64,000 bases of DNA from Armatimonadota bacterium (GTDB taxonomy: Bacteria; Vulcanimicrobiota; JACPDS01; JBDRKI01). The stretch lies in assembly GCA_043814095.1 (NCBI GenBank), contig JBDRKI010000075.1, positions 424-64,423 of the forward strand. Reading direction: 5' to 3'. The notes below the pieces were generated by a model, which saw nothing but the letters and a program-made list of their open reading frames with translations, was not told the DNA's origin and did not search any database. Positions 22,862 through 53,613 of this stretch are shown piece by piece. Made by a program: the position numbers and the translations under genes. Positions within the stretch are counted from its first letter, which is position 1. Each line of letters begins with the position of its first letter.

Positions 22862-22941
22862 AAAATACTCCTTTTGGTAGCATTTTTCACTAAAAATTAC
22901 CCCACTTGACCTATATCCGTATACGCGGGGGGGGGTATAAT
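22862..22941 (+). promoter_or_regulatory. Conserved promoter module for family copy 1: AAAATACTCCTTTTGG motif, TTGACC box, G9 tract, TATAAT
   Basis: Motif 22862-22877, TTGACC 22906-22911, poly-G 22927-22935 (9 G), TATAAT 22936-22941. The same module lies upstream of the 25082 and 39879 genes. The 57595(-) copy keeps only the poly-G tract and TATAAT. Confidence 0.45.
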
Positions 22942-23033
22942 ATAGATGGGAAGAGGAAACAAGGTTTCTTACAACTGATATTTTATGGTAAAAAAGCCAT
23001 TAAATAAAATAAAAAGAACGGAGGTTAACCAAG

Positions 23034-23507
23034 GTGAAAAAACTACTTATAGCGCTTGTAGCGATAGCATTTCTGACAACAGCGGCATTTGCCGGGTCAA
23101 CTGACACACAGACTGTGTATTATGAGATTGATGCAATTAATGAACTTGTTTTTGGCGATGATACAACCTTAACAATGGACACTGCAACTGCAGGGGATGA
23201 ACCTTTTCACGATTTCAAATATCCTACCTATAACATTACTACTAACGAAGCTGCTAAAAAATTAACTGCTTCAATTAACGCAACAATGCCGAATCGTGTA
23301 TACTTCAGAGTAAAGGCAGAAGCACCAACCGGCGCTAGCAGTACCGGCTTACAATATATGAACACAACTGCCAAAAATCTTGTAACCGGTATTGAAACCG
23401 TAGTAGAGTCCGGTATAACTTATACCTTAAATACCTATGCATATGCTGATGCCGGTCTACCGCCTGATGGTTCAAGAGTCATAACCTTCACATTATGTGA
23501 CGAATAA
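23034..23507 (+). CDS. Small secreted protein, variable-core family copy 1 (157 aa)
   Basis: GTG start after a GGAGG RBS. Sec signal with AFA|GS cleavage site. Conserved STDTQTVYYEIDAINE N-terminus and LPPDGSRVITFTLCDE C-terminus shared with three paralogs. Divergent middle. Confidence 0.7.
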   Translation: MKKLLIALVAIAFLTTAAFAGSTDTQTVYYEIDAINELVFGDDTTLTMDTATAGDEPFHDFKYPTYNITTNEAAKKLTASINATMPNRVYFRVKAEAPTGASSTGLQYMNTTAKNLVTGIETVVESGITYTLNTYAYADAGLPPDGSRVITFTLCDE

Positions 23508-23533
23508 ACAGATATTTTAAGTTAGTGTTGAAA

Positions 23534-23560
23534 AAGCATACTCATGCGGTATGCTTTTTT
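23534..23560. terminator. Rho-independent terminator (AAGCATAC-loop-GTATGCTT plus T-run), bidirectional, shared with the convergent ATPase gene
   Basis: Perfect 8-bp stem followed by TTTTTT. An A-run precedes it on the other strand. Confidence 0.6.
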
Positions 23561-24816
23561 ATATCCTGTGCCGCGGCAAAAATCTCCCACGGATATAAAG
23601 ATTTAATTCTTTCATCTTCGCCGGAAGATAGTTTTTGCAGGGATATAACCCAGGCATCTTTCTGTTTGTATTTATCTATAAATGAGATGAGTGTTGACAG
23701 TGATTTTTGCGGATACGAAAGTTTGGCTTCTGCCGGGATTTTCTTAAAATTAAGATCCGCGATAAAATCTATCTCCGTTTTCTGTTTAGTCCTCCAGTAT
23801 TTTACAATCTCTTTTCCTAATGCCGAACGGATTGCGCAGTAAACAGCGTTTTCAAACAGCTCCCCGCTTACTTTATCCAGAAAAACGCCGTATTTTAAAA
23901 GATTGGCTATGCCTGTATCCTCAAAAAATATTTTAGACATTTTCGATATCTCGCTTCTTATATTCGTATAAAACGGCGGTACCATCTTTATAATGTAAGT
24001 GTTTTCCATAATAAAAAGATATTCTTCTATTGTCGGCCTTGATATCCCTATGGTAGAAGAAAGCTCCAGAACATTTAACAAAGATCCTGTTTTATCCGCC
24101 AAAACCCGGAGAAGTTTATTAAATCGGTTAACATCCCGTATATGACCTAAATCTCTTATATCTTTCTTAACATATGTATTTATAACTTGTTTAAGATATG
24201 TTTCTTTTGCATCGATAGATTTTTCAAGCACAATTTTGGGATACCCGCCGTAAATTAGGTACTCCTTAAAAAGACCGGACAGCTCCTTATTAACGGTTTC
24301 AGACTGAAAGGCTTTGAAAGATGACAGATCGTAATTAATTTCTTTAAACACCAGAAACTCTTCAAAATCCAGAGGATAAAGTTCGAAGTCTACGGTTCTT
24401 CCTGCCAGGGAATCTTTAAATTTACTTTTTACCTGAAAACTGGATGATCCGGAAACGATAATCTTCAACCATTCGTAATGATCGTGGAGTATTTTAAGAA
24501 GCGGGGATGGGTTATCCAGATATTGAATTTCATCTATCAGTATGTAAATTTTATTGTTTTTGTCTATATTCTTATGACTTTCAATATAGCTAACGACTTC
24601 TTTATGTCCCTTATTAAACATTTCTAAGAAAGTAAAATCTTCCAGATCAAAATAAAAAATATTATCAGGCAGAACTCCTTTCTCATTTATAAGCTTATCC
24701 CTTATAATTTTTAATAAAGTAGTTTTTCCCGTCTGCCTGGCGCCATGAATAACCAGAATCTCTCCTTTTTTCAAAAACTTATCGATAGGCTTTAATAATT
24801 TTCTCGGCTTATACAT
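23542..24816 (-). CDS. AAA+ superfamily ATPase, COG1373 / DUF4143-type
   Basis: Walker A (HGARQTGKTTLL), Walker B (ILIDEIQYL), about 420 aa with a C-terminal DUF4143-like region. Paralogs at 44101 and 55711. Confidence 0.8.
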   Translation of the reverse strand: MYKPRKLLKPIDKFLKKGEILVIHGARQTGKTTLLKIIRDKLINEKGVLPDNIFYFDLEDFTFLEMFNKGHKEVVSYIESHKNIDKNNKIYILIDEIQYLDNPSPLLKILHDHYEWLKIIVSGSSSFQVKSKFKDSLAGRTVDFELYPLDFEEFLVFKEINYDLSSFKAFQSETVNKELSGLFKEYLIYGGYPKIVLEKSIDAKETYLKQVINTYVKKDIRDLGHIRDVNRFNKLLRVLADKTGSLLNVLELSSTIGISRPTIEEYLFIMENTYIIKMVPPFYTNIRSEISKMSKIFFEDTGIANLLKYGVFLDKVSGELFENAVYCAIRSALGKEIVKYWRTKQKTEIDFIADLNFKKIPAEAKLSYPQKSLSTLISFIDKYKQKDAWVISLQKLSSGEDERIKSLYPWEIFAAAQDIKKHTA

Positions 24817-24906
24817 AATCTTATTTTACATTTTCCCTTACTTTTTGTCAAGTATGTTTATCATTTTATCTGTAAATATGCTATAAAGACGACTTAAAAA
24901 CCTGCC

Positions 24907-24988
24907 AAAATACTCCTTTTGACCTATGGTTTTAGTCGAAAATTGCCCCACTTGACCTATATCCGTATACGCGGGGGGGGGGTATAAT
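24907..24988 (+). promoter_or_regulatory. Conserved promoter module for family copy 2 (motif, TTGACC, G10 tract, TATAAT)
   Basis: Motif 24907-24924, TTGACC 24952-24957, poly-G 24973-24982 (10 G), TATAAT 24983-24988. Confidence 0.45.
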
Positions 24989-25081
24989 ATAGGTGGGAAG
25001 GGAGAAAGAGACTTCCCTCAATCAAGATTTAAAGGCATAAAAAGCCATTAAATAAAACTAAAAGAAAGGAGGTTAACCAAT

Positions 25082-25564
25082 GTGAAAAAACTACTGATAG
25101 CACTTGTAGTAATAGTATTTCTAGCAGGAGCGGCATTTGCGGCATCAACAGATACCCAGACTGTGTATTATGAGATTGACGCGATAAATGAAATTGATCT
25201 TGATGTGGGTAGCTTAACATTAACAGTTGATTCAGTAGCACAAGCTGGATATCAGCCGGCTTCGGATGTTACCGATTGGATGTTATATGGTATTACAACT
25301 AATTCCACGGGTAAAAAAATAACCGGTTCAATTAATGCAAATGTACCAAGTAATTGTCAGTTGGAGGTTCTTTTGGAAGCCCCTAGCAATGCTGTTTCTA
25401 CGGGATTGAAAAATTTATATTTTCAAGCGACAAATTTAGTAACCAGTATTGAAACGGTTGCAGAAGGAGATGTTAGGTATCGTTTCTATTGGCACGCAAA
25501 TGTTGAAGCCGGTCTCCCCCCAGACGGCTCAAGAGTCGTAACCTACACATTAACGGATGAATAA
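25082..25564 (+). CDS. Small secreted protein, variable-core family copy 2 (160 aa)
   Basis: GTG start, GGAGG RBS. Same conserved termini (…STDTQTVYYEIDAINE… / …LPPDGSRVVTYTLTDE). Confidence 0.7.
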   Translation: MKKLLIALVVIVFLAGAAFAASTDTQTVYYEIDAINEIDLDVGSLTLTVDSVAQAGYQPASDVTDWMLYGITTNSTGKKITGSINANVPSNCQLEVLLEAPSNAVSTGLKNLYFQATNLVTSIETVAEGDVRYRFYWHANVEAGLPPDGSRVVTYTLTDE

Positions 25565-25592
25565 ACAGATATTTTAAGTTAGTGTTAAAAAA

Positions 25593-25620
25593 ACAGCTCC
25601 TTTTTGAGCTGTTTTTTTTA
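25593..25620. terminator. Rho-independent terminator (ACAGCTC-loop-GAGCTGT plus T8), bidirectional with ssrA
   Basis: Stem-loop followed by TTTTTTTT. ssrA 3' end abuts on the opposite strand. Confidence 0.6.
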
Positions 25621-25621
25621 A

Positions 25622-25981
25622 CTTTCTTTTCTGGTGGAGGTGGAGGGATTCGAACCCTCGTCCGAAAAGGTCCCCACAGAGATTCTACAAGCTTATTCCA
25701 GATTTTGTTTCTCGGCGCCCCGGCTCCTCTGAACAGGATCCGCAGAACCCAGCCCCTTTAATTTCCCGCTTAGATAAGAGGCGGTTTCAAAACGGTAAGC
25801 CATCCTATTTTGGCGCCCTTATTTAGGCCGGCTGGCGGACCTAAGAGGACGTAGCCGCGTTAAGCGGCTAGTGCTAATTCGTTATCAGCGTTTATTTGTT
25901 TTCTAACTTTTTAACGAGCTGTCAGCAACTCGGCCTGCTGCCTCTGCCAAAACACATCCCGTCGAAACCTTGTCACCCCCC
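25622..25981 (-). ncRNA. ssrA: tmRNA (transfer-messenger RNA, SsrA)
   Basis: Minus-strand 5' end GGGGGTGACAAGGTTTCGACGGG. 3' end GGTTCGAATCCCTCCACCTCCACCA (T-arm plus CCA). Internal tag reading frame GCT GAT AAC GAA TTA GCA CTA GCC GCT TAA gives (A)ADNELALAA*. smpB lies 1.6 kb away. Confidence 0.8.
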
Positions 25982-26098
25982 ATGAGCATTATAGCATTTA
26001 AAATTACTTTAGGCAATGATAATTTTGATATCTAAAGGTAAAAATTCTTAATGGAAGAATATAGATTGTATCTTGTTATTTAAAAGGAGACGGTAAAT

Positions 26099-27313
26099 AT
26101 GCATCAATCTAAAAAGATATTGACTTATCTTGTTTTTATCTTTATTTTTCTTTTTCTTACGGTTAGTTGCGTCATGGCTAAAGAAAATATTTATTTTATG
26201 CGCAATAATGATATATGGCTGCTTGATTTAAACACTAATAATTACAAGCAGTTCACAAATTCGGGCAAGTATTACGACATAGTCCTCTCACCCGATAAAA
26301 CAAAAGCCGCTTATATAGTAAACCTGAAACGCAACGATATGGGCGGGTACTCGGGAATCCTTGCGGCATCAAATATAGACGGGACGGGTGAGATTATTTA
26401 TAAGGATATTTCGGTTTTCCCCGGACAGTTCTCCTGGAGTCCTGACGGAAAAAAAATAGCCGTGATACCTGAGACGGAAAAATTAACCATTCTTGATTAC
26501 GAAACAGGAAAAACAGCGCCTCTTGAAATTGAAGCGGAAAAAATATGGTACCCAAGCTGGTCGCCTGACGGCAAAAAGATAGCACTGCGCGCAAGTAAAA
26601 AAGGGATAGGCGATGTTTTAATATATAATACAGAAAGCAAAGATACCGTTTCCGCTTACGAATCACTATTTAAATGGGGTTCGGGATACTTTCCCGCGCC
26701 TGCAGACTGGACACCCGACAGCAAAAAAATAGTCTTTGAAATACAGCAGTTAAATAATGCCAATAATAAGCTGCTGGTAGAAGATCTGGAAACAGGTGAA
26801 GTGGAACAGATAGGTGAAGGATTCTCTCCCCTGTTCTCCTCAAAAGGCAATATGATTGCCTTTATAGCGTTCAAGCAGGATATGAATCAGGACAATATCG
26901 TTGATCTTATGGACGCCGATATTTACATTTACTATATGGACTCGAAAGAAACTAAAAACATAACTAAATCCCCTGAACCGGAAAGAATAGTTGCATGGGC
27001 TGAAGAGATAGATAAAATTCTTTATAACCAGATATACTACCAGGGCAATAAAGAAACGGCTAACCTGCATTCGGCTAATATAGCTTACGGCACAAACCAG
27101 GAGCTTATAAAAAACGCTTACGGGCTCGCATGGGAAGAAAAAGGAAAAGCCGTGGGCATAGCATCAACTACACCCGCAGCCGATAAAACAGAAACTCCGG
27201 AGAAAACCTCCAAAACAAAAGCAGCTACACTTCCTTTTATAATAATATTCTTACTGATTGCGGTACTGGCTGCAGCGGTTTTAATAATGCGCATCAAACG
27301 TAAAAACATGTAA
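26099..27313 (+). CDS. Secreted/anchored beta-propeller (TolB-like WD40 repeat) protein with C-terminal TM anchor
   Basis: Signal peptide. Repeated …SPDGKKIA… blades. C-terminal hydrophobic helix followed by basic residues. Confidence 0.6.
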   Translation: MHQSKKILTYLVFIFIFLFLTVSCVMAKENIYFMRNNDIWLLDLNTNNYKQFTNSGKYYDIVLSPDKTKAAYIVNLKRNDMGGYSGILAASNIDGTGEIIYKDISVFPGQFSWSPDGKKIAVIPETEKLTILDYETGKTAPLEIEAEKIWYPSWSPDGKKIALRASKKGIGDVLIYNTESKDTVSAYESLFKWGSGYFPAPADWTPDSKKIVFEIQQLNNANNKLLVEDLETGEVEQIGEGFSPLFSSKGNMIAFIAFKQDMNQDNIVDLMDADIYIYYMDSKETKNITKSPEPERIVAWAEEIDKILYNQIYYQGNKETANLHSANIAYGTNQELIKNAYGLAWEEKGKAVGIASTTPAADKTETPEKTSKTKAATLPFIIIFLLIAVLAAAVLIMRIKRKNM

Positions 27314-27334
27314 TGAAAAAGAGGATGTCCTCAA

Positions 27335-27583
27335 CTAAGCCACCTCAAACTGCTGTATTCCGATAAATTCCGGCAGGTGTCTTTTTTCATATAAGGTCAT
27401 TTCTTCTAAGCATAATTCCGCTACTTCTTTAAGATTTTTTTGCAGTTCCTCCAGGGTTTTTGCTTGAGTATGCGCCCCGCGGATCGAGGGAACAATTCCT
27501 ACATATAATCCAGATTCCGAGTCTTTTTCAATATATGCTGTTATTCTATGCATTGAAATTCTTCCACAAATTCTATTTAACAA
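27335..27583 (-). CDS. HicB-like (UPF0150) type II antitoxin-family protein. Apparently orphan.
   Basis: …YIEKDSESGLYVGIVPSIRGAHTQAKTLEEL… matches the HicB N-domain family. The likely true start is the internal ATG at 27553. No hicA-like ORF is seen adjacent. Confidence 0.5.
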   Translation of the reverse strand: MLNRICGRISMHRITAYIEKDSESGLYVGIVPSIRGAHTQAKTLEELQKNLKEVAELCLEEMTLYEKRHLPEFIGIQQFEVA

Positions 27584-27623
27584 AATTATATAAAATTCTC
27601 ACATGAAACACAATTGATAATTA

Positions 27624-28085
27624 TTACTCTTTTCCTTTATCCCTTACCGCTCTGTCAATTTCTCTTTGCTGTTCTTTCTTTTTTAAGCTTTCGCGCTTAT
27701 CGTATGTATGTTTTCCCTTGGCAAGGCCAAGCTCTACTTTGGCATAACCGCCCTTAAAATACATTTTTGTGGGCACCAGGGTAAGCCCTTTCTGCTGTGT
27801 CGCGCCTATAAGGCGCTTTATTTCTGACTTATTTAAAAGAAGCTTCCTTTTTCTTTTGGGATCGCGGTTGTAATAAGAGCCTTTCTCGTAAGGCGAGATA
27901 TGGCAGTTCACGAGATACGCTTCTCCTTTTGTAATCTGAGCGTAAGAATCCTGGAGGCTTACTTTTCCCTGGCGCAGGGACTTAACTTCAGTGCCTGCAA
28001 GAACAATGCCGGCCTCATACTTTTCTATGATATGATACTGGAAATACGCTTTTTTATTTGTGACTATATTTTTCTCGCCCTTCAC
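27624..28085 (-). CDS. smpB: SsrA-binding protein
   Basis: Conserved SmpB sequence (…NKKAYFQYHIIEKYEAGIVLAGTEVKSLR…). 153 aa. Confidence 0.9.
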   Translation of the reverse strand: MKGEKNIVTNKKAYFQYHIIEKYEAGIVLAGTEVKSLRQGKVSLQDSYAQITKGEAYLVNCHISPYEKGSYYNRDPKRKRKLLLNKSEIKRLIGATQQKGLTLVPTKMYFKGGYAKVELGLAKGKHTYDKRESLKKKEQQREIDRAVRDKGKE

Positions 28086-28087
28086 TC

Positions 28088-28498
28088 TTAACCTCTCTTA
28101 GCCGATTCGCTCACCTTAATAAAAGTTGATGTGCCTTCCGCCACAATTTCTCCTTTTGAATTTTCAATGCGGGCTTTGCCGAAAACAAGCTTCCCCTTTT
28201 CTTCGGTAATTGCGGCATATGCCTTTAAATTATCTCCTACCAAAGCGGGTTTTTTAAATTTAACTTCCAGCTTTCCGGTAACGCCGTAATAGCCTTTCCC
28301 GATGCACAGATAAGCCATTGCCTCATCAAGAAGGGTGCTTATTATCCCCCCGTGAACTACATCCTTAAATCCCTGATGAATTTTCAGAGGGGTAAAAGAA
28401 CAGGTTAAACTGTCTTTATCATGGTTAAACTTAAGTTTAAGACCTGCCGGGTTATCCGGCCCGCAGGCAAAACAGTATCTATCATCGGTAAAATCCAT
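28088..28498 (-). CDS. PaaI/YbgC-type hotdog-fold acyl-CoA thioesterase
   Basis: 136 aa. HGG motif (DVVHGGIISTLLDEAMA) typical of PaaI-family thioesterases. Confidence 0.7.
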   Translation of the reverse strand: MDFTDDRYCFACGPDNPAGLKLKFNHDKDSLTCSFTPLKIHQGFKDVVHGGIISTLLDEAMAYLCIGKGYYGVTGKLEVKFKKPALVGDNLKAYAAITEEKGKLVFGKARIENSKGEIVAEGTSTFIKVSESAKRG

Positions 28499-29111
28499 AT
28501 CTTTTCTCCAAATTTTGAAGTATCTGTCTTTTTAAATCTTTTTTTGTTCCGTTATTTTCTATTATGACATCTGCAAATCCTGATTTTTCCTTCAAGCTCA
28601 TCTGGGACCTTATCCTGAGGAGGGCACCGGCTCTGCTTACTTTATCTCTTTTCATAACCCTTTCAATCTGCCTTTTCTGAGAGCAGGTTATGAGCCAGAT
28701 ATCTTTAACAAGCTTGGTCTGCCCGGCCTCTATTAACAAAGGAGCCGCCAGCACCGTAATACCGGCTCCGGCGGCTTTAATCCGTTTTTTTATTTCCTTT
28801 ATTATTTCAGGATGGGTTATACTACTTAACCTGGCGAGCTTATTTTTATCTTTAAAAACTATTTTTGCCAATATTTTTTTATCAAGAGTCAGGTCTTTAT
28901 TTAAAATATTTCTGCCGAACTCTTTAGCTATTTTTAAGTTTAATCCGCTCCCTGCTTCTGTCAGGTCTTTATAAATCTCATCCGCGTTAATTACAAAGGC
29001 GCCTATAGAAGCAAATACGGAAGATGCCGTTTTTTTGCCTGTGGCAATTCCCCCCGTAAGCCCTATAACTATTTTACCGGCCTTCTGTTTTTTCTTCTTC
29101 GTTTTTCTCAT
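28482..29111 (-). CDS. coaE: Dephospho-CoA kinase
   Basis: P-loop GLTGGIATGKKT and the CoaE fold. 209 aa. Confidence 0.85.
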   Translation of the reverse strand: MRKTKKKKQKAGKIVIGLTGGIATGKKTASSVFASIGAFVINADEIYKDLTEAGSGLNLKIAKEFGRNILNKDLTLDKKILAKIVFKDKNKLARLSSITHPEIIKEIKKRIKAAGAGITVLAAPLLIEAGQTKLVKDIWLITCSQKRQIERVMKRDKVSRAGALLRIRSQMSLKEKSGFADVIIENNGTKKDLKRQILQNLEKRYGFYR

Positions 29112-30318: not shown

Positions 30319-30408
30319 ATAATAACAATTATAATCACTGTGAGAAAAATTGCAACTTGAGGCCTTAAAATCTTTATTTTAAGCCAATAATCCCTACTTC
30401 AAAGCGAG

Positions 30409-31854: not shown

Positions 31855-31855
31855 T

Positions 31856-36438: not shown

Positions 36439-36442
36439 GGAA

Positions 36443-39699: not shown

Positions 39700-39786
39700 G
39701 GTCAAAAATACTCCTTTTGACCCATAGTTTTAGCCGAAAATTACCCCATTTGACCTATATCCGTAAATGCACGGGGGGGGTATAAT
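39700..39786 (+). promoter_or_regulatory. Conserved promoter module for family copy 3 (palindromic GGTCAAAAATACTCCTTTTGACC, TTGACC, G8 tract, TATAAT)
   Basis: Motif 39700-39722, TTGACC 39750-39755, poly-G 39773-39780 (8 G), TATAAT 39781-39786. Confidence 0.45.
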
Positions 39787-39878
39787 ATAAGTGGGAAGAG
39801 GAAACAAGGTTTCTTACAACAGATATTTTATGGTAAGAAAACCATTAAATAAAACAACAAGAAGGGAGGTTAACCACA

Positions 39879-40337
39879 GTGAAAAAACTACTGATAGCAC
39901 TTGTAGCAATTGTCTTTCTAGCAGGAGCGGCATTTGCAGGGTCAACAGATACTCAGACAATTTACTATGAGATTGATGCAATTAATGAGATTAGCTTTGA
40001 TACAAATATAACAATGACGGTTAATGCCGCAACAGCCGGTTCACAGCCAGCAGAAGTAAGTGTATGTTCTCTCGAATATAACATTACTACCAATGAAACC
40101 GGCAAGAAATTAACAGGCCAGCTTAATGCGAATATGCCGGGTAACACTACTCTTAAGGTTAATGTAGACGGCGGTGAAGTCGCATTATCAACCACCGCAA
40201 ATAATCTATACACTAATATTTCAACCATGGTAACAGCAGGCGACTGGTATTACAGCTTCTCTTTTCGAGCAACAGTCGCAGCCGGTCTCCCCCCAGACGG
40301 CTCAAGAGTCGTAACCTACACATTAACGGATGAATAA
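39879..40337 (+). CDS. Small secreted protein, variable-core family copy 3 (152 aa)
   Basis: GTG start, GGAGG RBS. Conserved termini (STDTQTIYYEIDAINE / LPPDGSRVVTYTLTDE). Confidence 0.7.
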   Translation: MKKLLIALVAIVFLAGAAFAGSTDTQTIYYEIDAINEISFDTNITMTVNAATAGSQPAEVSVCSLEYNITTNETGKKLTGQLNANMPGNTTLKVNVDGGEVALSTTANNLYTNISTMVTAGDWYYSFSFRATVAAGLPPDGSRVVTYTLTDE

Positions 40338-44009: not shown

Positions 44010-44100
44010 AAATAGGTATTTGCGCTTATTTATTATATCAGTTTAAATTTTGTTGTAAAGAGGTGATATATTAAATTTTTATAATGCCGAATAGCTTTAA

Positions 44101-45426
44101 TTAGCATAAGACAAGAAAATACCATGCCGGATAAAAAATTACTTCTTTGTTTCTAAATTTTTGAATTTGAAATTCACCCTGATAAACAACATAGCCTCTT
44201 GTTAATTTATTTTTCTCCATGATATAAAGCAGGTTCTTCGGAATTTCCTGCCTTTGCGAATTTTTCACTTCGATCGGGATTATTTCTTTATCTTTTATAA
44301 TACAATCCACTTCATGAATTTGGTCCCTCCAGAAATATAAATTCTTTTGCGACCTCGTAAAAAGAGATGATGCTATAAGGCTTTCAAATACCTGATCGGG
44401 GGATGCACTGAAAAAATTGGCCAGCGAAGGATCTATTAAATGTCCTTTGGGATTCGAGCGCGAGCTTTCTTTTAAAGCTTTACTGAATTTGGGCAGCCTA
44501 AAATACAGCAATGATTTCTCAATGTAAGAAATGTATCTTTCGACGACTTCTCTTGAAACTCCCATGAGACGAGAAATTGTTGTAACATTTATTATAAATG
44601 AAGTGGCGGCACCCAGATAATAAAATATTTTTTCTAAATACGACGGCTCCCTTATCTTATAAAGTTCAACTATATCTCTAAATATAACTTTATCTAAAAT
44701 GTCTTCTTTGATAAATCTATTATGTAAATCTTTATCCTCTGAATACAGCTGAGGGAAGCCGCCCTCTCTTAAAAAGTTTGCAAAGTGAACTTTTATCTCG
44801 CCGGAGAACGGAATAAGTCCGGCAGGAAAATTATCCGTAAATAACTCTTCTTGCTTTATATGGCTGCTTGCGGCAATATGCGGCGCGGAAAAACTTAAAT
44901 ATTCTTTAAATGAAAACGGAAATAAAATTTCTTCTACGGTTCTACCCGCCAAAGACTCGGTCTTCTGGGTTAGAAGAGATATTGATGAACCCGAGATAAA
45001 AAACGTTGTGGGAAATTTTCTATCCACATACAGTTTTACCGTAAATTCCCAGTTTTTTAAAAACTGTGCTTCATCAAGAAAAAAATATACCCTGCCCTTA
45101 TTTAATTCTTTCCCCCTGTACTGTTCATATGCCTTGAAAATATCATCAAGAGAAACTCTTAATATCGGATCATCAAATGAAAGATAGCAAATATCTACTG
45201 GAGAAACTTTTTCTTCTATGAGCGTATTTATCAACTGATAAAATAAAGTCGTTTTTCCAACCCGCCTGGGACCCTTTAAAAGAACCGCTCTTTTTCCTTG
45301 TAAATATGAATATAACCGGGCATAAATATTTCTTTTAAATTCCGGCAAAAAAGCAGAAGGAACCATACCTGTATGCCACCAGGGATTATGAAAAGAAAGC
45401 CTTTCAATTAATACGTTGTTTTTCAT
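44101..45426 (-). CDS. AAA+ superfamily ATPase, COG1373 / DUF4143-type (paralog)
   Basis: Walker A LKGPRRVGKTTLF, Walker B FFLDEAQFL. 441 aa. Confidence 0.8.
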   Translation of the reverse strand: MKNNVLIERLSFHNPWWHTGMVPSAFLPEFKRNIYARLYSYLQGKRAVLLKGPRRVGKTTLFYQLINTLIEEKVSPVDICYLSFDDPILRVSLDDIFKAYEQYRGKELNKGRVYFFLDEAQFLKNWEFTVKLYVDRKFPTTFFISGSSISLLTQKTESLAGRTVEEILFPFSFKEYLSFSAPHIAASSHIKQEELFTDNFPAGLIPFSGEIKVHFANFLREGGFPQLYSEDKDLHNRFIKEDILDKVIFRDIVELYKIREPSYLEKIFYYLGAATSFIINVTTISRLMGVSREVVERYISYIEKSLLYFRLPKFSKALKESSRSNPKGHLIDPSLANFFSASPDQVFESLIASSLFTRSQKNLYFWRDQIHEVDCIIKDKEIIPIEVKNSQRQEIPKNLLYIMEKNKLTRGYVVYQGEFQIQKFRNKEVIFYPAWYFLVLC

Positions 45427-45490
45427 ATTTATAGTTTACAATATTGCTATGTTTTTGTCAACTATATATTACAAGAATATGACAAACCGC

Positions 45491-45862: not shown

Positions 45863-46163
45863 CTATCCAGTTAAGATAATCCCTGTTCCCTTCAAGCACG
45901 GGCAGGGATATTATCTCGGGCACCGTATATGAATGCTCTGATTTTACCCTATCTATCAATTCATTGATCTTATTTTTTCTTGTTTTTATTATCATAAGAG
46001 TTTCCGTTGATGTATCAATTTTGCCTTCCCACCAGTACATGGACTTTATTTTATCAACCATATTAACGCACGCGGCGAGTTTCTCGTTAAGAAGTATGTT
46101 CGCGATTTTCTCGGCTTCTTCTGCGCTGGAGACGGTTATCAGAACAACTTGATGCTGGCTCAT
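45834..46163 (-). CDS. cutA: Divalent-cation tolerance protein CutA
   Basis: 109 aa, CutA1 fold sequence (…LAACVNMVDKIKSMYWWEGKI…). Confidence 0.8.
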   Translation of the reverse strand: MSQHQVVLITVSSAEEAEKIANILLNEKLAACVNMVDKIKSMYWWEGKIDTSTETLMIIKTRKNKINELIDRVKSEHSYTVPEIISLPVLEGNRDYLNWIDESVKVAGG

Positions 46164-46316
46164 AAGGATACCCTCCTTGAGTAAAAATTAATCACGCTTA
46201 ATTTATTTTATAACAGAAAGCAAAATTCCTTTTAACGGTATTGAAGTAAACGTGGGTATTATACTATAATAGATGATATTTCTATTAACTGTTCAGCGAA
46301 CAGGCGGGGGCATATT

Positions 46317-46589
46317 ATGGATAAACAGGAATTCATAAAACGGATTTCCATGAAAATGAATATTAAAAAAGTTTCCGCGGAAATGATTCTTGATGATATA
46401 ATTGAAATTCTTACTGACGCCATAGCCGGCGAAAAAAACGTTAAAATAATGGCGCTTGGTTCTTTTCAGGTTAAAAACAGGTCCGCGAGACACCGCATAA
46501 ACCCGCGCACCAAAGAAAGAATCCTTATATCCCCCAGAAAATACGTACAGTTCACGGCAAGCAAAAAATTAATCGGAAAGATAAAATAA
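46317..46589 (+). CDS. HU-family DNA-binding protein (second copy)
   Basis: 90 aa, …GSFQVKNRSARHRINPRTKERILISPRKYVQF…. Confidence 0.8.
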   Translation: MDKQEFIKRISMKMNIKKVSAEMILDDIIEILTDAIAGEKNVKIMALGSFQVKNRSARHRINPRTKERILISPRKYVQFTASKKLIGKIK

Positions 46590-46592
46590 AAA

Positions 46593-49382
46593 ATGAATAC
46601 TGATTATATTTTCATAAAAGGTGCGAGAGAACATAATCTTAAAAACATAGACGTTAAGATTCCCCGCAACAAACTCGTTGTTATAACAGGTCTTTCCGGT
46701 TCGGGAAAATCTTCTCTGGCATTTGACACTCTTTACGCTGAAGGTCAGAGAAGGTACGTGGAATCCCTTTCGGCTTACGCCAGGCAGTTTTTGGGTATGA
46801 TGGAAAAACCGGATGTAGATCATATTGAAGGGATATCCCCTGCCATATCCATTGACCAGAAAGGCATAAGCAAAAACCCCAGGTCAACGGTCGGAACTAT
46901 CACGGAAATATATGATTATCTGCGCCTTCTTTACGCGAGGATAGGCGTGCCTCACTGCTATAAATGCGGCAGGGTCATAACCACACAGACCGTACAGCAG
47001 ATGGTTGACCGGATCCTGAAACTGCCGGAAAGCACAAAAATTCAGCTCCTTGCTCCCGTTGTGAGAGGTCGCAAAGGCACATACCAGTCACTTTTAAGCC
47101 AGATAAAACAAAAAGGGTTTACAAAACTGCGGGCAAACAAAATCCTTTACGACATAGAAGAAAACATAGTCCTGGACAGATATAAAAAACATGACATAGA
47201 AGTTGTCGTGGACAGGCTGATCATTAAAGAAGATATAAAAACAAGGCTCGCGGACTCCCTTGAGACCGCGCTCAAGCTTTCCGACGGATACGCGCTTGTC
47301 CTTATAAACGAAGAAGAAGAAGTTTTATTCAGCCGGATGCTTACCTGCCCAAAATGCAGTATAAGCATAGAAGAACTCCAGCCCCGGATGTTTTCGTTCA
47401 ACAGTCCGTACGGCGCGTGCCCGGAATGCACCGGCTTAGGATATAAAATAGAACTTGACCCCGATCTTGTCGTGCCGGACACATCTTTATCAATCACAGA
47501 AGGCGCGATAAAGCCGTGGAAAAAGCCTGTCTTTGACGCAGCTCACCACGCCGCGGCAACCTGGTTTTGGAAAAAACTCTTCCGCCTGGCCGGTACGCAC
47601 AACATAGCTCTTGAGAAGCCTTTCGGGCGCCTGACAAAAAAGCAGGAAGAAATTCTGCTCCATGGTTCGGATGACGGAGATTTTGAAGGCGCCATACCCA
47701 ACCTTGAAAGAAGATACACCCAGACCGATTCAGAAGCGATAAGAACCGAGATAGAAAAATATATGGCATACCATCCCTGTCCCTCCTGCAAGGGCGCGCG
47801 CCTTAAAAAAGAAGCTCTCTCGGTAAAAGTGCAAAACTTAAATATTTCACAGATGACTTCCATGTCCATCTCCGATGTTTTTGACTTTTTAAAAAATCTG
47901 AGCTTAAAAGAAAAAGATAAATTAATCTCCGCGGAAATCATAAAAGAGATAATGGCTCGTTTGATTTTTTTAAAAAACGTGGGGCTCAACTACCTTACTC
48001 TGAACAGGCCCGCGCAGACTCTCGCAGGAGGAGAATCCCAGAGAATACGCCTTGCCACCCAGATAGGATCGGGGCTTGTCGGGGTCCTTTACATACTTGA
48101 CGAACCCTCAATAGGGCTTCACTCAAGGGACACAAAAAAACTCTTAGAGACGCTTACCTCCTTAAGAGACCTGGGAAACACCGTTATTGTTATAGAGCAC
48201 GACGAAGAAACAATTAAAATAGCCGATCATATAATTGATATAGGACCCGGCGCCGGGGCTCACGGCGGAAAAATAGTATTTACGGGCACGCCCAAACAAC
48301 TGGTCAAAGATAAAAAATCACTGACGGGCAGGTACCTGTCCGGAAAAATCAAAATAAAGGTCCCGGAAAAAAGAAGAAAGGGCTCCGGGAAATTCATTGA
48401 GATAATAGGAGCCGAAGAACATAACCTTAAAAATATAAATGTCGCGATCCCCCTTGGCGCGTTTACATGCGTAACCGGGGTGTCCGGCTCGGGCAAGAGC
48501 ACCCTTATAAACGACATATTATATAACCAGCTGGCGCATAACTTTTACCGTACCCATATAAAAGCCGGCAAACACAAACAAATAAAAGGCGCTGACAACA
48601 TAGATAAAATAATAGTCATAGACCAGTCGCCCATAGGAAGAACGCCCAGATCCAATCCCGCGACCTATACAGGCGCCTTTGATCCGGTAAGAACGCTTTT
48701 CTCCCAGACTTATGAAGCGCGTATGCGCGGGTATAAACCGGGAAGATTCAGCTTCAATGTGCCCGGGGGCAGATGTGAAGCGTGCCAGGGACAGGGAATA
48801 TTAAAAATAGAGATGCATTTTCTGCCCGATGTTTACGTGCCGTGCGAAGTATGCAAAGGAAAAAGATACGGCAGGGAGACTCTTGAGGTTTATTATAACG
48901 GTAAAAACATCTCCGAGGTTTTAAATATGACTGTGGCGGAAGCGCTTGATTTTTTCAAAGCCATCCCCCAGATTAAATCAAAACTGCAAACTTTATATGA
49001 TGTAGGACTCGGATATATAAAACTTGGCCAGAGCGCCACTACCCTCTCGGGCGGCGAAGCCCAGAGAATAAAGCTCGCGGCGGAACTTGCAAAAAGAGCG
49101 ACAGGTAAAACTTTATACATACTGGATGAACCGACAACAGGGCTTCATTTCCACGACATATACAAACTGTTAGGCGTGCTTAACAGGCTGACAGATGCCG
49201 GAAATTCCGTAATAATAATAGAACACAACCCCGATATAATAAAATGCGCTGATTACATAATAGACTTAGGTCCCGAAGGCGGGGATAAAGGCGGAAGAAT
49301 TGTGGCGGAAGGCACCCCTGAGAAAGTATCTTTGTCTAAAAAATCATACACCGGCCAACTATTAAAAAAAGTTCTCAAATAA
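46593..49382 (+). CDS. uvrA: Excinuclease ABC subunit A
   Basis: Two ABC ATPase modules ([14 protein letters not shown]; [13 protein letters not shown]), zinc fingers, 929 aa. Confidence 0.95.
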
Positions 49383-49471
49383 AAACTTTTCTCTTTTTTT
49401 TATTTAAAAATCTTTGTTTTACAATATTTTCCCTGTATTTCCGATAAAAACCCCCGCATGTTTCTTTAATA

Positions 49472-49522
49472 GGTCAAACGGAGTATTTTTATATGCTTTT
49501 TTACAAAATACTCCGTTTGACC
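49472..49522. promoter_or_regulatory. Perfect 18-bp inverted repeat (GGTCAAACGGAGTATTTT, 15-nt spacer, AAAATACTCCGTTTGACC), a double copy of the shared upstream motif
   Basis: The arms are exact reverse complements. Each arm matches the motif found upstream of the small-protein family and the 53693 gene. Lies about 85 nt upstream of the 49606 start. Confidence 0.5.
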
Positions 49523-49605
49523 GATACCCGCTTTATTTCCCCGATGGTAAAATAAAGTTAGGAGAACAAGAAATAAAGAAAATTTGACATAAAAGCGAGG
49601 GTTTT

Positions 49606-50580
49606 ATGAAAAAACAAATATTTTACGTATACCTGCTTATCTGTTTCGCTCTGCTAACCTTCGGCTGCGGGAGCGGCGGAGGAGGAGGCGGCGGCGGTGG
49701 CGGCGGCGGCACCTCCAGTGGAGGAAGCAGTACGCCCACTCCTACGCCCACGGCAACCGCGGAACCCGCAAATAATGGATCATTAATAGTATTATCAAAA
49801 GCTGACGGCTCCTTTTACGCGGTGCTTGCCGGTGTATGCGATTATCCCGGCTCGGTAAATGACTTAAACTATACCGCGAATGACGCCATAGATTTATATA
49901 ACTGCCTTAACGGCAGCAGTTTCTGGAGCGGGGTAACAGTATCAATAGAAAACGATATACACGTAACTTACGCGAAAATCCAGAACGCCGTGGCAACCGC
50001 AGCGGCGAATATCGCCGATGACGGCTTATTCGTATTCCTGTTCTCCGGACACGGTACAAATTCCGGAGGCATAGGATACCTGCTTCCTTATGACGGGATA
50101 AGCTCCTCATCGTGCAGAATAAGCGAAACTACCCTGCGCGTATGGCTTGACAGTTTTCCAACAAATTCAAAAAAATACATACTTATAGATTCCTGCTACA
50201 GCGGAGAATTTGTTGACATGTCGCCAAGGGGAGAAGAAGTCCTAACTTCCAAGTTTGTAGCAATAGAAGGATCTGATATTGCTTTCAGCAGGGATACGGC
50301 AAGATCCCTGGTCGGCGCGAACAATACTTATGTTATGGCTTCTTCCGCGGGAGACGAAGTAAGCTATGAATCAAGCCTGCTCCAGAACGGCGTATTCGGA
50401 TATTATGTGGCACAGGGGCTCGGCACGGGCGCTATAATAGGTCCGGCAGACGCGAACTTGAGCAATACTATAACCGCGGAAGAGATGACCGTATATGTAC
50501 CGCCTCTTGTAACGATTTATGTGGCAGGCCAGCATCCTCAATCTTATGATAATGTAATAGGCGATTTAAGAATAAAATAA
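49606..50580 (+). CDS. Caspase-like (peptidase C14, clan CD) domain lipoprotein with poly-Gly tether
   Basis: Signal peptide ending …LTFGC then G13. Caspase His (FLFSGHG) and Cys (LIDSCYSG) motifs. C-terminus …YDNVIGDLRIK shared with paralogs. Confidence 0.7.
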   Translation: MKKQIFYVYLLICFALLTFGCGSGGGGGGGGGGGGTSSGGSSTPTPTPTATAEPANNGSLIVLSKADGSFYAVLAGVCDYPGSVNDLNYTANDAIDLYNCLNGSSFWSGVTVSIENDIHVTYAKIQNAVATAAANIADDGLFVFLFSGHGTNSGGIGYLLPYDGISSSSCRISETTLRVWLDSFPTNSKKYILIDSCYSGEFVDMSPRGEEVLTSKFVAIEGSDIAFSRDTARSLVGANNTYVMASSAGDEVSYESSLLQNGVFGYYVAQGLGTGAIIGPADANLSNTITAEEMTVYVPPLVTIYVAGQHPQSYDNVIGDLRIK

Positions 50581-50692
50581 TACACCTCGACCCGCCCGCA
50601 GATAAAGGCTCTGTGTAAAAACAGGGCTTTTATCCATTTAACCTCAAAGGAACTTTGCTCTGCTTGTAAAATTAATCCTATAATTAAACGCT

Positions 50693-51538
50693 TTGGAGAT
50701 TTTTATGAAAAAATTTGTTTTATTTATGATGTGCTCTTTGTTTGTCTTGGCTTTTTCTTTGCATGGCACGGGACACTGCAAGCTGTTAATGCCCGAAACG
50801 GAAAAAAACATATTGGGCGCGGCTTATTTTAAAGACGGCAAAGTAAACATAGCTATTGCAAATAACTCCGATGAAAAACAATATTTAAAAATATCTTACG
50901 GATATTACGAACTTAATCCGGTAAAAGTCCATACCAAAGATATCCTCGTAGGCTCAAAAGAGGTTATGCTTCTTGCTTTTAACAAAGCTTACGCGAAAAC
51001 AAAAACAGGACAGAAAAAAACATGCGACACCGTTTTTATATACAATGACTCCGGCGAACTGCTGAATCTTATTAACGTTCAGGGGTTGACCGCCGGAACG
51101 AACTACTTTAAATGCTACTCATATTTTATGAATGATTATAAAATGTGCAGGATACTGCTTAATTTAAACGCATTAAAAAATGAAAATTATATATATATCG
51201 TTGATAAAAATCCTTTATCTTCATCCGGTGAAGCCGATATAACCCTGCAGGCATCGGGATTTATGGGATTGAACCAGATAAACTCCCGGGATCTTTATAA
51301 TATTGATATAGATAAAGATTATATAGAACAGATCTGCAAAGAATCATCCGGAAGCTGTCTTTTCTACGGTGCCGGCTATATGTATTTAAGAATAACTACA
51401 GGAGAGCTGGAAAAAGCAGTTCTTGTATCCCCTAAAATAAAAAAATACCATTTCGGAACCCAGGGAGTAACTTCCGGGAATATATCCACGCCTCAGATAC
51501 TATTTTACCCGCAGAAATATAAAGTAAAAGAATTATAA
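50693..51538 (+). CDS. Hypothetical secreted protein
   Basis: Signal peptide. Embedded within the caspase-like cluster. No recognisable motif. Confidence 0.5.
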   Translation: MEIFMKKFVLFMMCSLFVLAFSLHGTGHCKLLMPETEKNILGAAYFKDGKVNIAIANNSDEKQYLKISYGYYELNPVKVHTKDILVGSKEVMLLAFNKAYAKTKTGQKKTCDTVFIYNDSGELLNLINVQGLTAGTNYFKCYSYFMNDYKMCRILLNLNALKNENYIYIVDKNPLSSSGEADITLQASGFMGLNQINSRDLYNIDIDKDYIEQICKESSGSCLFYGAGYMYLRITTGELEKAVLVSPKIKKYHFGTQGVTSGNISTPQILFYPQKYKVKEL

Positions 51539-51665
51539 CTTGATTTTTTAAATTTTATTATCTTACTTTTTTATTTTATTTATATGGAAATAAAACCTGT
51601 TTTGTGTTACAATGTTATATGATGTAATTAAGCCGCTCTTATAATAACCGATAAGAGGTTTTTTT

Positions 51666-53471
51666 ATGAGAAAAATAAGCCCTTATATATTTTTAATTAT
51701 ACCTTTTTTAATAATTGTATTATTCTCTTCTTTAAGCTGTTCCGGAGGAGGAGGGGGAGGCGTAACCTACGACACAAGCACCATATCTTTTGATCTCCCC
51801 ACCCCAATAGCCGCAGGAACTCCCGAACCGGCAAATAAAGGCGAATTAATATACATATCAAAAAATGACGGATCGGCATATGCGGTTCTTGCCGGTGTAA
51901 CCGATTACCCTGAAGGAGAAAATGATTTAAATTTCACCGCTAATGACGCGATAAATATGATGAACTCATTATCCGGGAACGATTTCTGGTCAACTTCAAC
52001 CGTAACACGGTACAGCGATGTACACGTCACAAAATCGATGATACAGAATGCAATACAAACAGCCCAGGCCGCTCTTAATAACGGCGGATTGTTTATATTT
52101 ATGTATTCCGGTCACGGCGCCGCATCCGGGAGCACGGGATACCTTGTCCCGTTTAACGGTGTTTACTCAGAATCAGAATGCATAAGTGAGGGCGAGATGC
52201 AGGGCTGGTTAAGCAATTTTGACGCGTCCATAAAAAAATGCATACTCTTAGACGCGTGCTTCAGCGGCAGTTTCATAAATAAAAGAACAGATTCTAAAAC
52301 TAAAAATATGGTACCCAAATTCATAAAGCTGGATCATTCCGATACTTATTACGAAAATGATAAATACGCAAAGTCCCTGCTCGGTATCCCGAACTGTTAT
52401 GTTATGACATCTTCTAGAGGAAGCGAAGTAAGTTATGAAGACTATAACGTACAGGGCGGCGTATTTGTGCATTATATCCACGAAGCACTCGGTGACGGCA
52501 ACAGGATGGGTCCTGCCGATTCAAACGGGGATATCATAATAACGGAAGAAGATCTGACCAATTACGTGCCCTCACAGGTACGCAACTATACAGAATGGGC
52601 GCAGAACCCGCAGGTTTACGATAACTATACAGGATCATTCACCGTTAAATCAGGAAGCAAGGGTACAATTATCACAATAGCCAAAGCCGATAGTTCGGCT
52701 TATGCTGTGCTTGTCGGGGTACGTGATTATGAGAACGGCAGAACCAATGACTTAAGCTTTACCGTAAACGATGCCGTTGATTTAAAAGATTCTCTCCTAA
52801 ACAGCACTTTCTGGAGCGGAGCGACAGTATCAATCCAGAATAATATCCAGGTTAACAAATCAATGATAGAAACTGCCGTTAATAACGCCAAAAATAATAT
52901 AGCAAACAGCGGCCTGTTTGTATTTATGTTTTCCGGACACGGCACCAATTCAAATGGATTAGGATATTTAATACCCTACGGGGGAACCGGAGGCGCGGCA
53001 AACTGTATCAGTGAAAATGATTTAAGAAGCTGGTTGAATAATTTTAATTCTTCCGTTAAAAAATATGTTCTTTTAGATTCATGTTACAGCGGATATTTCA
53101 TAGATAAAAGCTTAAGCACCGGTTTAATACCAAAAACCATAGCAATAGATAATAATTATAACTCATTTTACAGCAGTGAAAAATTCGCTAAAACTCTTGT
53201 TGGGCTTTCAAACTGCTGTGCCATGACATCCTCAAAGGGGAGCGAAGTAAGCTATGAAGACATCCCCCTGCAGAACGGCGTATTCGGATATTATGTGGCG
53301 CAAGCTTTAGGCACAGGCGCCACAATAGGTCCGGCTGACACTAACTCAAGCGGCAGTATAACAGCCCTGGAGATGGGAAATTATGTCTCCGTGTATGTAT
53401 CAAGCTATACATCGGGGGTGCAGAACCCTCAAACTTATGATAATTATTCAGGCGAGTTAAGGGTAAAGTAG
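51666..53471 (+). CDS. Tandem double caspase-like (C14) domain lipoprotein
   Basis: Signal plus Cys plus G7. Two complete His/Cys dyads (FMYSGHG…LLDACFSG; FMFSGHG…LLDSCYSG). Ends …YDNYSGELRVK. Confidence 0.7.
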   Translation: MRKISPYIFLIIPFLIIVLFSSLSCSGGGGGGVTYDTSTISFDLPTPIAAGTPEPANKGELIYISKNDGSAYAVLAGVTDYPEGENDLNFTANDAINMMNSLSGNDFWSTSTVTRYSDVHVTKSMIQNAIQTAQAALNNGGLFIFMYSGHGAASGSTGYLVPFNGVYSESECISEGEMQGWLSNFDASIKKCILLDACFSGSFINKRTDSKTKNMVPKFIKLDHSDTYYENDKYAKSLLGIPNCYVMTSSRGSEVSYEDYNVQGGVFVHYIHEALGDGNRMGPADSNGDIIITEEDLTNYVPSQVRNYTEWAQNPQVYDNYTGSFTVKSGSKGTIITIAKADSSAYAVLVGVRDYENGRTNDLSFTVNDAVDLKDSLLNSTFWSGATVSIQNNIQVNKSMIETAVNNAKNNIANSGLFVFMFSGHGTNSNGLGYLIPYGGTGGAANCISENDLRSWLNNFNSSVKKYVLLDSCYSGYFIDKSLSTGLIPKTIAIDNNYNSFYSSEKFAKTLVGLSNCCAMTSSKGSEVSYEDIPLQNGVFGYYVAQALGTGATIGPADTNSSGSITALEMGNYVSVYVSSYTSGVQNPQTYDNYSGELRVK

Positions 53472-53592
53472 CCAAAATCCTGTCAAGTACCTGATTAACC
53501 ATAAACCGCTTCATTTCAGAGGCGGTTTTTTTATTTCCTTATTTCAAGGCATTATTTTGTCGAACATATTTTTGTAGTTCTTTTGGAACATT

Positions 53593-53613
53593 CAAAAATA
53601 CTCCTTTTGGTCC
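53593..53613 (+). promoter_or_regulatory. Shared upstream motif copy (CAAAAATACTCCTTTTGGTCC), about 80 nt upstream of the 53693 gene
   Basis: 18/20 identity with the motif at 22862, 24907, 39700 and 49505. Confidence 0.4.

Follow-up and report, generated by a model that had tools for sequence, protein, structure and literature searches.

The 64,000-nt window analysed here (the whole stretch of DNA) belongs to contig JBDRKI010000075.1 of a metagenome-assembled NCBI genome of an Armatimonadota bacterium (locus tags ABIH00_*). It harbours a family of small secreted proteins with a predicted pilin-like fold and a cluster of caspase-like lipoproteins. Upstream of both gene sets lies an 18-bp element within a conserved promoter module, which we consider the putative recognition site of a transcription activator. 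The genes concerned are the following, in window positions (aa, amino acids; ORF, open reading frame):

23034..23507, plus strand: small-family gene 1, 157 aa, signal peptide, pilin-like predicted fold
25082..25564, plus strand: small-family gene 2, 160 aa, identical to NCBI ABIH00_07805
39879..40337, plus strand: small-family gene 3, 152 aa
57121..57701, minus strand: fourth small-family gene (gene 57595-57121), with a -10 box at 57692-57687, a G9 run at 57693-57701 and an A9 run at 57363-57371
49606..53471, plus strand: probable transcription unit starting at 49606 with casp1, a 324-aa lipoprotein with a Peptidase_C14 domain
50693-51538, plus strand: ORF281, secreted, with a signal peptide, between casp1 and casp2
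51666-53471, plus strand: casp2, 601 aa, two caspase domains
53693..54751, plus strand: casp3, caspase-like lipoprotein, NCBI gene call of 349 aa

The small proteins carry a cleavable signal peptide (AFA/GS, with the slash at the cleavage site), as read in the translations, and match no Pfam or NCBIfam family. A database search revealed at least 19 paralogs on many contigs of the source genome (P0001-P0019), in which the N- and C-terminal strands are conserved and the middle is variable. An AlphaFold model built on the paralog alignment has a predicted local distance difference test score (pLDDT) of 86, and its best matches in the PDB are FimA (E = 8e-7, TM-score ~0.5), CfaB and CooA, all chaperone-usher pilins; the designation pilin-like thus refers to a predicted fold. 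No chaperone or usher gene was seen. A profile search yielded around 1,500 clusters of ~160-aa relatives in other uncultured bacteria, none of them informatively named or assigned to a Pfam family. A metagenome search with the small-family alignment gave no confirmed relatives, and a tblastn search of plasmids with a family member gave no match.

The products of casp1, casp2 and casp3 all match Peptidase_C14 and keep the catalytic His (SGHG) and Cys (D[SA]CxSG) residues. All three have lipoprotein-type N-termini followed by Gly-rich linkers, and lipoboxes can be read in the translations of casp1 (LTFGC) and casp3 (ALVGC). The genes casp1, ORF281 and casp2 probably form one transcription unit, ended by a terminator-like hairpin at 53503-53528. 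ORF281 belongs to no recognisable family, and its predicted structure (pLDDT 36) is unusable.

The motif AAAATACTCC(T/G)TTTG(A/G)(C/T)(C/A) occurs six times in the window, always within one of five intergenic regions. Written as AAAATACTCCKTTTGRYC with at most two mismatches, it is found at 22862(+), 24907(+), 39705(+), 49472(-), 49505(+) and 53595(+), against 0.04 matches expected from dinucleotide-preserving shuffles; none out of 100 shuffles reached six. A relaxed pattern gives 13 matches versus 3.4 expected and adds four degenerate copies. The weight matrix derived from the six sites finds nothing else in the 64 kb above the shuffle range. Only five of the 21 intergenic gaps longer than 100 nt carry the motif, while most of these gaps adjoin housekeeping genes (glnA, glmS, sdh, hem, polA, uvrA, smpB, speE, cysS). 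Outside the window, a scan of the GTDB genome collection returned at least 113 single matches in unrelated taxa; among the matches listed, none is related to the window by BLAST, and they are due to chance. The same judgement applies to the only match obtained with a 21-mer in the IMG/VR viral collection, which falls in GC-rich coding DNA without a -10 box.

The motif had first been pointed out in a sequence-only reading of the window, much of which stands. All six reported copies are real, although the one placed at 53593 begins 2 nt further on (53595) and the one placed at 39700 is the start of a longer palindrome whose 18-mer begins at 39705. That self-palindrome, GGTCAAAA-ATACTCC-TTTTGACC, is present as described, and the inverted pair reported at 49472-49522 is slightly longer than described, spanning 49469-49525 with 21-nt arms that are 95% complementary and 15 nt between them. 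From motif start to start codon we measured 172, 175, 174, 134/101 and 98 nt, so that the claimed distance of 80-175 nt is confirmed as 98-175 nt. The absence of the motif upstream of the housekeeping genes of the window was likewise correctly noted, as the matrix scan is clean elsewhere. The statement that every instance precedes a gene needs a correction for the copy at 49472, which faces away from casp1, and the statement that the targets are secreted proteins or lipoproteins applies to the window (signal peptides or lipoboxes) but fails in one of the related bacteria discussed below. The proximal copies of the motif, its 24/25-nt spacing to the -10 box, the fourth small-family gene and the duplication of the small-family promoter cassette had all been overlooked.

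A larger, ordered module becomes apparent when the five upstream regions are aligned. Each promoter then comprises a distal copy, mostly of consensus sequence, and a more degenerate proximal copy; the proximal casp1 site and the degenerate sites of the small family and casp3 share a column, and the -10 boxes are aligned as well. The elements are:

22862..22879, plus strand: copy 1 distal site, AAAATACTCCTTTTGGTA
22893..22911, plus strand: copy 1 proximal degenerate site, AAAATTACCCCACTTGACC, a 19-nt variant; TTGACC ends 24 nt before the -10 box
22927..22941, plus strand: copy 1 G9 run (22927-22935) and -10 box TATAAT (22936-22941)
24907..24924, plus strand: copy 2 distal site
24939..24957, plus strand: copy 2 proximal degenerate site; TTGACC 25 nt before the -10 box
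24973..24988, plus strand: copy 2 G10 run (24973-24982), then TATAAT (24983-24988)
39700..39722, plus strand: copy 3 distal site (18-mer 39705-39722), GGTCAAAA-N7-TTTTGACC; the full 8-bp dyad occurs here only
39737..39755, plus strand: copy 3 proximal degenerate site; TTGACC 25 nt before the -10 box
39773..39786, plus strand: copy 3 G8 run (39773-39780), then TATAAT (39781-39786)
49472..49489, minus strand: inverted copy 5' of casp1, 33 bp centre-to-centre from the proximal site
49505..49522, plus strand: casp1 proximal site, perfect consensus; TTGACC 25 nt before TAAAAT (49548-49553), which is preceded by TGG
53595..53612, plus strand: casp3 distal site, AAAATACTCCTTTTGGTC
53617..53634, plus strand: casp3 proximal degenerate site, AAAATAGGTCTTTTGATG, 22 bp from the distal site; TTGATG 25 nt before TATAAT (53660-53665)

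The proximal copies of the small family (at 22893, 24939 and 39737) read AAAATT(A/G)CCCCA(C/T)TTGACC. At casp1, it is the proximal copy (49505) that is perfect, and the upstream copy (49472) is inverted. The distance between the two sites is 32-33 bp in the small family and at casp1 and 22-23 bp at casp3-type promoters, corresponding to about three and two helical turns, respectively; both sites would thus be exposed on one side of the helix. TTGAYS, with which the proximal site ends, is followed by (G/T)ATA and, after 25 nt in total, by TATAAT or TAAAAT. When the promoters of related bacteria are included, TTGAYS-N25-TAWAAT occurs in seven out of eight promoters, with N24 in the remaining one (the G9-bearing copy 1), and the orientation towards the -10 box is identical for all eight proximal sites. 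The pattern TTGAYS-N24/25-TAWAAT is present at all five window promoters and only once elsewhere in the 128 kb of two-strand sequence, and the full composite pattern (two sites, 25 nt, -10 box) has no chance match in shuffles of the window. A TAG or TGG is found 5 nt after the -10 box in all promoters and is plausible as the transcription start; counted from there, the proximal site would extend from about -55 to -38 and the distal site would lie at about -70 to -90.

None of the motif promoters has a -35-like hexamer at 16-18 nt from the -10 box, and a consensus sigma-70 scan does not call them, whereas canonical promoters of the same genome are called (TTGCCT-17-TG-TATAAT for tmRNA; TTGACA-17-TAAAAT for a neighbouring gene). 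This difference fits dependence on an activator. Alternatively, RNA polymerase might read the element directly, as a -35-like TTGACC with or without an A/T-rich part resembling an UP element, by means of a lineage-specific or alternative sigma factor. Sigma-dependent elements share the strict orientation and the near-invariant spacing observed here, and the element does include TTGAC and A/T runs. A spacer of 25 nt is nonetheless difficult to accommodate in this reading: we know of no sigma-70-family holoenzyme that spans such a distance between -35 and -10 boxes, known spacers being 13-19 nt. Moreover, the -10 box is a standard TATAAT, promoters with a 17-nt spacer exist in the same genome, and a second copy located 22-33 bp upstream, inverted in one case, is more readily explained by a DNA-binding protein. 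Direct recognition by a sigma factor is therefore considered unlikely.

The arrangement of the sites also bears on whether the bound protein would activate or repress. Two sites on the same face, two to three turns apart, would suit cooperative repression as well, with distal-proximal looping silencing the pilin-like and caspase genes, and the proximal site together with the GATAT block extends to the -35 region. Without a -35 box, however, the core promoters should be weak unaided, and the sites lie upstream of the core promoter, overlapping neither the -10 box nor the start. An exact spacing of 25 nt, combined with a G-run that changes it, would also make little sense for an operator, and we regard repression as quite improbable.

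Dyad symmetry had been taken in the sequence-only reading as a sign of an operator for a dimeric transcription factor, an argument that has to be abandoned. Of the 15 sites compared, one has 8-bp arms in its best internal inverted repeat, six have arms of 5-6 bp and eight have arms of at most 4 bp, with an arm spacer of either 6 or 7 nt. Much of the apparent symmetry stems from an A-run facing a T-run, and the invariant positions (AAAAT, C10 and TTTG) are asymmetric. As these asymmetric invariants are combined with a constant direction towards the -10 box, the 18-mer is, judged from its sequence, an oriented element and not a palindromic operator. Resemblances to the ComK box (AAAA-N5-TTTT), IHF sites and the FNR box were dismissed because of a misfit in spacing or orientation.

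The copy at 49472 is the exception to this common direction. No ORF lies downstream of it in its own orientation (the end of uvrA is 89 nt away), and the hexamer 25 nt downstream is TATCGG instead of a -10 box. In the equivalent intergenic region of a related bacterium (L122, see below), the sole copy faces leftward and drives an extra gene for a 218-aa protein. The pair at 49469-49525 may accordingly be the remnant of back-to-back promoters. Alternatively, the 49472 copy may serve as the distal site of casp1, given that it is located at the 33-bp distance seen in the small family. All that follows from its inversion is that either orientation is tolerated at the distal position or that the copy was once part of a divergent promoter.

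Conservation was assessed at loci of related bacteria, reached through homologs of the caspase proteins from other metagenomes. Loci L115 (ENA) and L116 (JGI) represent one contig from two sources and contain a syntenic cluster of a 613-aa caspase, a 273-aa ORF, a 372-aa caspase, a 344-aa caspase and a HAD hydrolase. In loci L122 and L123, which derive from the same organism or a similar one, the DUF2007-CutA-HU-UvrA-casp1 region is syntenic. Identities to the window proteins amount to 80% for UvrA, 69% for HU, 61% for the HAD hydrolase and 49-55% for the caspases; by sequence, these four loci come from at least a different genus than the source. Orthologs of casp3 are present in L115/L116 (54% identity) and in L119 (49%), the latter from a third organism. 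Upstream of these orthologs, the module reads AAAATAGTTCTTTTGACC-TATAT-AAAATGGGCCGTTTGACC-GATAT...(25 nt)-TATAAT in L115/L116 and AAAATACTTCTTTTGACC-TATAT-AAAATGGACCGTTTGACC-GATAT...(25 nt)-TATAAT in L119. In L122/L123, a perfect AAAATACTCCTTTTGACC-GATAT...(25 nt)-TATAAT precedes the gene for the 218-aa protein (L122 4376-5032, minus strand). Located between uvrA and the casp1 ortholog, this gene is missing in the window. This protein has neither a signal peptide nor a Pfam match, and is thus the exception to secreted or lipoprotein targets; it could be another member of the regulon or even its regulator.

The invariant columns of the promoter alignment are AAAAT, C, TTTGA, GATA, TA-AAT and TAG; conservation extends neither to the remainder of the spacer nor to sequences 5' of the distal site. 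A search of the whole JGI metagenome collection with the composite pattern returned one contig, which carries a casp3 ortholog, and no chance matches. Retention of the module at orthologous promoters whose flanking DNA has diverged constitutes a phylogenetic footprint, which speaks for a functional element and not for a random or mobile repeat. Alternatively, the motif might be part of a dispersed element in intergenic DNA, such as a miniature inverted-repeat transposable element or a repetitive extragenic palindromic element; the inverted pair at 49469-49525 looks like a small palindromic element, and the copies are nearly identical. Such elements would not be expected to be confined to five of the 21 larger gaps, invariably 5' of a gene and at a distance of 25 nt from a -10 box, nor to be conserved at orthologous positions in other genera. 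The motif is also absent from the IMG/VR collection save the one chance-like match, and in a repeat search of the window the promoters were bordered neither by terminal inverted repeats nor by flanking repeats. The probability of this explanation is very small. With its fixed orientation, its 25-nt spacing and its conservation 5' of orthologs, the motif is, in the window and the related loci, better described as a cis-element specific for gene context and common to two unrelated gene sets, in line with the central claim of the initial reading.

The small-family promoters have one further component. Runs of eight or more G or C residues occur only four times in the 64 kb (G9, G10, G8 and G9), each directly 5' of a small-family -10 box, against a chance expectation of ~0.3 estimated from base composition. 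Located at the 3' end of the 25-nt spacer, the run co-determines its length: the spacer is 25 nt in copy 2 (G10), 25 nt in copy 3 (G8 with two extra bases) and 24 nt in copy 1 (G9). All promoters without a G-run keep the 25-nt spacing. The G-runs are therefore candidate slippage tracts that could mediate phase variation; the length differences observed are those between paralogs. An invertible promoter of the fimS or Bacteroides type was rejected, as no inverted repeats bracket the five promoters and no recombinase is found among the annotated genes.

The fourth small-family gene, which adjoins tRNA-Pro, has kept the 5' untranslated region (UTR), the -10 box and the G9 run, and its AAAAT...TTGACC sites are degenerate or deleted. 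An A9 run, in place of the A8 that the paralogs need, divides its frame into parts of 82 and 110 aa. The gene would look like a decaying copy, although only this one case is available and the frameshift may have arisen in assembly; more generally, it could represent a pseudogene, a slippage tract in the coding region or an error of assembly. We count the loss of the sites in a copy with a broken frame in favour of their function.

Taken together, the 18-mer is probably the recognition site of a putative transcription activator within a promoter module that defines a regulon, a reading to which we assign a probability of roughly 60%. Bound at the proximal site, an activator would recruit RNA polymerase or position it, as class II activators or response regulators do, and the distal site would aid by cooperative binding. 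The genes carrying the module would form one regulon, consisting of the secreted pilin-like multigene family and the operons of caspase-like lipoproteins. Slippage of the G-run would alter the distance between site and -10 box and thereby switch single paralogs (25 nt on, 24 nt off), while the caspase genes would remain under control of the activator only. That a protein binds the 18-mer, that binding activates, that the target genes are co-expressed and that the G-run slips is what we infer from the DNA.

A number of observations weigh against this reading. The six consensus copies in the window differ by zero to two mismatches, which is unusually uniform for transcription factor sites. Three of them are copies of one duplicated 175-nt cassette (83-87% identical) and are not independent; the promoter lineages compared number five, in which three window instances are paralogous. 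The casp1 ortholog in L122 lacks the motif, as do the more distant casp1 homologs in L117, L118, L120 and L124, which are found beside an OmpR-type two-component system and have different repeats. A TATACGC block is common to the spacers of the small-family and L122 promoters, and some of the motif similarity may have been inherited with a shared ancestral promoter cassette. No gene of the window stands out as one for a specific transcription factor, HU and three DUF4143 ATPases being all there is. Finally, the lengths of G-runs in a metagenome-assembled genome may be affected by assembly errors.

Several of these points converge on the possibility that the similarity is merely inherited, one promoter cassette having been copied before different genes, from which neither a dedicated regulator nor common regulation would follow. 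The sequence-only reading had dismissed duplication in favour of a regulatory link. This is justified for the caspase promoters but not for the three small-family instances, in which promoter and 5' UTR are 83-87% identical between paralogs, the first 120 coding nt 81-86% and the rest of the gene 65-67%. Besides this duplicated cassette, the shared TATACGC block and the near-identity of the window copies, the sequence that follows the leftward copy at 49472, GCGGGGGTTTTTATCGG, resembles a decayed G-run and -10 box. Between casp1, casp3, L115 and L119, on the other hand, only the site blocks, GATAT, the -10 box and TAG are shared, and spacers and 5' UTRs differ. The element also persists at casp3 orthologs in genera whose UvrA is 80% identical and whose neutral DNA is unalignable, and copying does not exclude function. 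Descent of a cassette is thus partly true for the small family and possibly for L122 but does not explain the conservation across genera; as a full account, we hold it to be about as improbable as repression. As for the putative activator, a winged-helix response regulator is a reasonable guess in view of the OmpR-type pairs at distant casp1 homologs, but only a lead, since those loci lack the motif. The casp1 homologs concerned (49-51% identity) are immediately downstream of an OmpR-family regulator and a histidine kinase in L117 (3379-6431), L118 (1885-4924) and L120 (189-2544), and near such a pair in L124 (1023-5732). Two 11-nt direct repeats, TTTCTTCATAA, precede this operon of the distant relatives. 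A profile search covering every ORF of L115-L125 found no small-family gene near the caspase genes of these relatives, and gene neighbourhood thus provides no independent tie between the two gene sets.

The closest parallel to the proposed module is offered by the fimbrial promoters of Bordetella. In these fim promoters, a C-stretch lies next to a conserved 'fim box' and its length sets transcription (PMC1891110). Phosphorylated BvgA binds upstream sites, the homopolymer replaces the -35 box, and placing TTGACA in its stead renders the promoter constitutive (PMC7250471). Like fim2, fim3 and fimX, the genes described here are paralogs, by predicted fold of fimbrial type, whose promoters combine (putative) activator sites further upstream with a C/G run and a -35 box that is poor or absent. 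The Bordetella activator also controls envelope genes that are not phase-variable, which is mirrored by the caspase promoters with their sites but without a run. The differences are nevertheless considerable. The site sequence is unrelated to the heptad inverted repeats of BvgA, the run abuts the -10 box instead of occupying the -35 position, and the 25-nt spacing differs. Furthermore, the family comprises at least 19 paralogs in an uncultured Armatimonadota bacterium, for which both the regulator and the slippage are predicted.

Regarding the sites themselves, OmpR/PhoB-family binding sites (ompF F1-F3, pho boxes) are oriented, ~18-20 bp long and arranged in tandem on the same helical face; in the corresponding promoters, the proximal site abuts or replaces the -35 region and the -10 box is good. 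The module shares the oriented ~18-bp tandem sites on one face, the proximal one at the position of a missing -35 box, and the good -10 box. It differs in that the 18-mer has no clear internal direct repeat of 10-11 bp, only a weak WWWWKAC repeat in 10-nt phase, and in that no response regulator is encoded in the window; relatives with a linked regulator-kinase pair have TTTCTTCATAA twice and not the motif. Class II sites of CRP/FNR are true palindromes centred at -41.5. Similar to these, the element has its centre in the -40s, overlaps or replaces the -35 region and obeys a strict spacing, with extra upstream sites possible; unlike these, it is asymmetric and oriented, with its centre near -46. 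The vlp system of Mycoplasma hyorhinis also is a multigene family in which a cassette of promoter, 5' UTR and signal peptide is conserved, the mature region diverges and the promoter spacer contains a homopolymer. In vlp, however, the homopolymer lies between true -35 and -10 boxes and there is no shared activator site, whereas the promoters described here have no true -35 box and a common site. More broadly, a conserved upstream region and 5' coding sequence combined with a divergent remainder of the gene is a hallmark of families of variable surface proteins.

Elements that combine an activator site with a slippery promoter are well known, and the advance is a new instance in an unexplored phylum without a new principle. 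As far as the literature searched goes, the site sequence, the 25-nt geometry and the pairing of pilin-like with caspase-like genes in an uncultured phylum are new; nothing relevant was found on phase variation in Armatimonadota or on the regulation of orthocaspase lipoproteins. Gene regulation in Armatimonadota and related uncultured lineages is, to our knowledge, virtually unexplored, and the roles of bacterial caspase-like lipoproteins are largely obscure. An 18-bp site of high information content (~24 bits) with defined geometry provides a probe for the regulator and a way to delimit the regulon across metagenome-assembled genomes, and it yields a testable prediction for the homopolymer switching of a large pilin-like family (25 nt on, 24 nt off). 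By tying the caspase-like lipoproteins to a secreted family resembling fimbrial subunits, it also offers a clue to their function. Type V pilins are matured by gingipains, which belong to clan CD. One scenario, which we regard as doubtful, is that around 20 pilin-like genes are individually switched by G-run slippage under one master activator common to the membrane-anchored caspase-like proteases, which could in turn mature the pilin-like subunits. If true, this would be a new protease-dependent system for surface fibres with combined global and stochastic control, and an environmental uncultured bacterium would possess a contingency system known mainly from host-adapted pathogens.

A number of further features were observed around these genes. 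The 5' UTRs of ~95 nt (22942-23033, 24989-25081, 39787-39878 and 57596-57686) are highly conserved across the four small-family genes and contain short hairpins (GGGAAG...CTTCCC and ATGG-N8-CCAT). An Rfam search of the window returned a tmRNA and one tRNA only and no known RNA element in these regions. A distant homolog of the small family in L114 has 48 nt of upstream DNA present and is uninformative for the motif. In the vicinity of other caspase genes, additional repeats occur: tandem 11-nt GTTAACA(A)TTTT repeats lie upstream of the 613-aa and 372-aa caspases in L115 (915-960 and 3834-3868), and two AATC(C/T)GTGTAAT boxes ~22 nt apart lie just upstream of the distal site in L115 (5044-5078) and L119 (115-150). 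Both types of boxes may be sites for other regulators.

Three paralogous ATPase genes of the AAA_14 + DUF4143 type are found at 23542-24816 (minus strand), 44101-45426 (minus strand) and 55711-56880 (plus strand). Two of them are flanked by the small family, in the orders copy 1-DUF4143-copy 2 and DUF4143-copy 4, and a further DUF4143 gene occurs near the caspase homolog of L124. Genes for ATPases of the PilB/PilT type (T2SSE) lie beside small-family copy 1, at 18006-18938 (plus strand), 19104-19637 (plus strand) and 20039-22267 (minus strand), the PilB-like gene apparently being split into two ORFs. Lastly, a 329-aa protein on a JGI contig (P0160) appears to be a gene-call fusion of a CheY-like receiver domain and a complete small-family gene, which would mean that a receiver-domain gene is located directly upstream of a family member in another organism.

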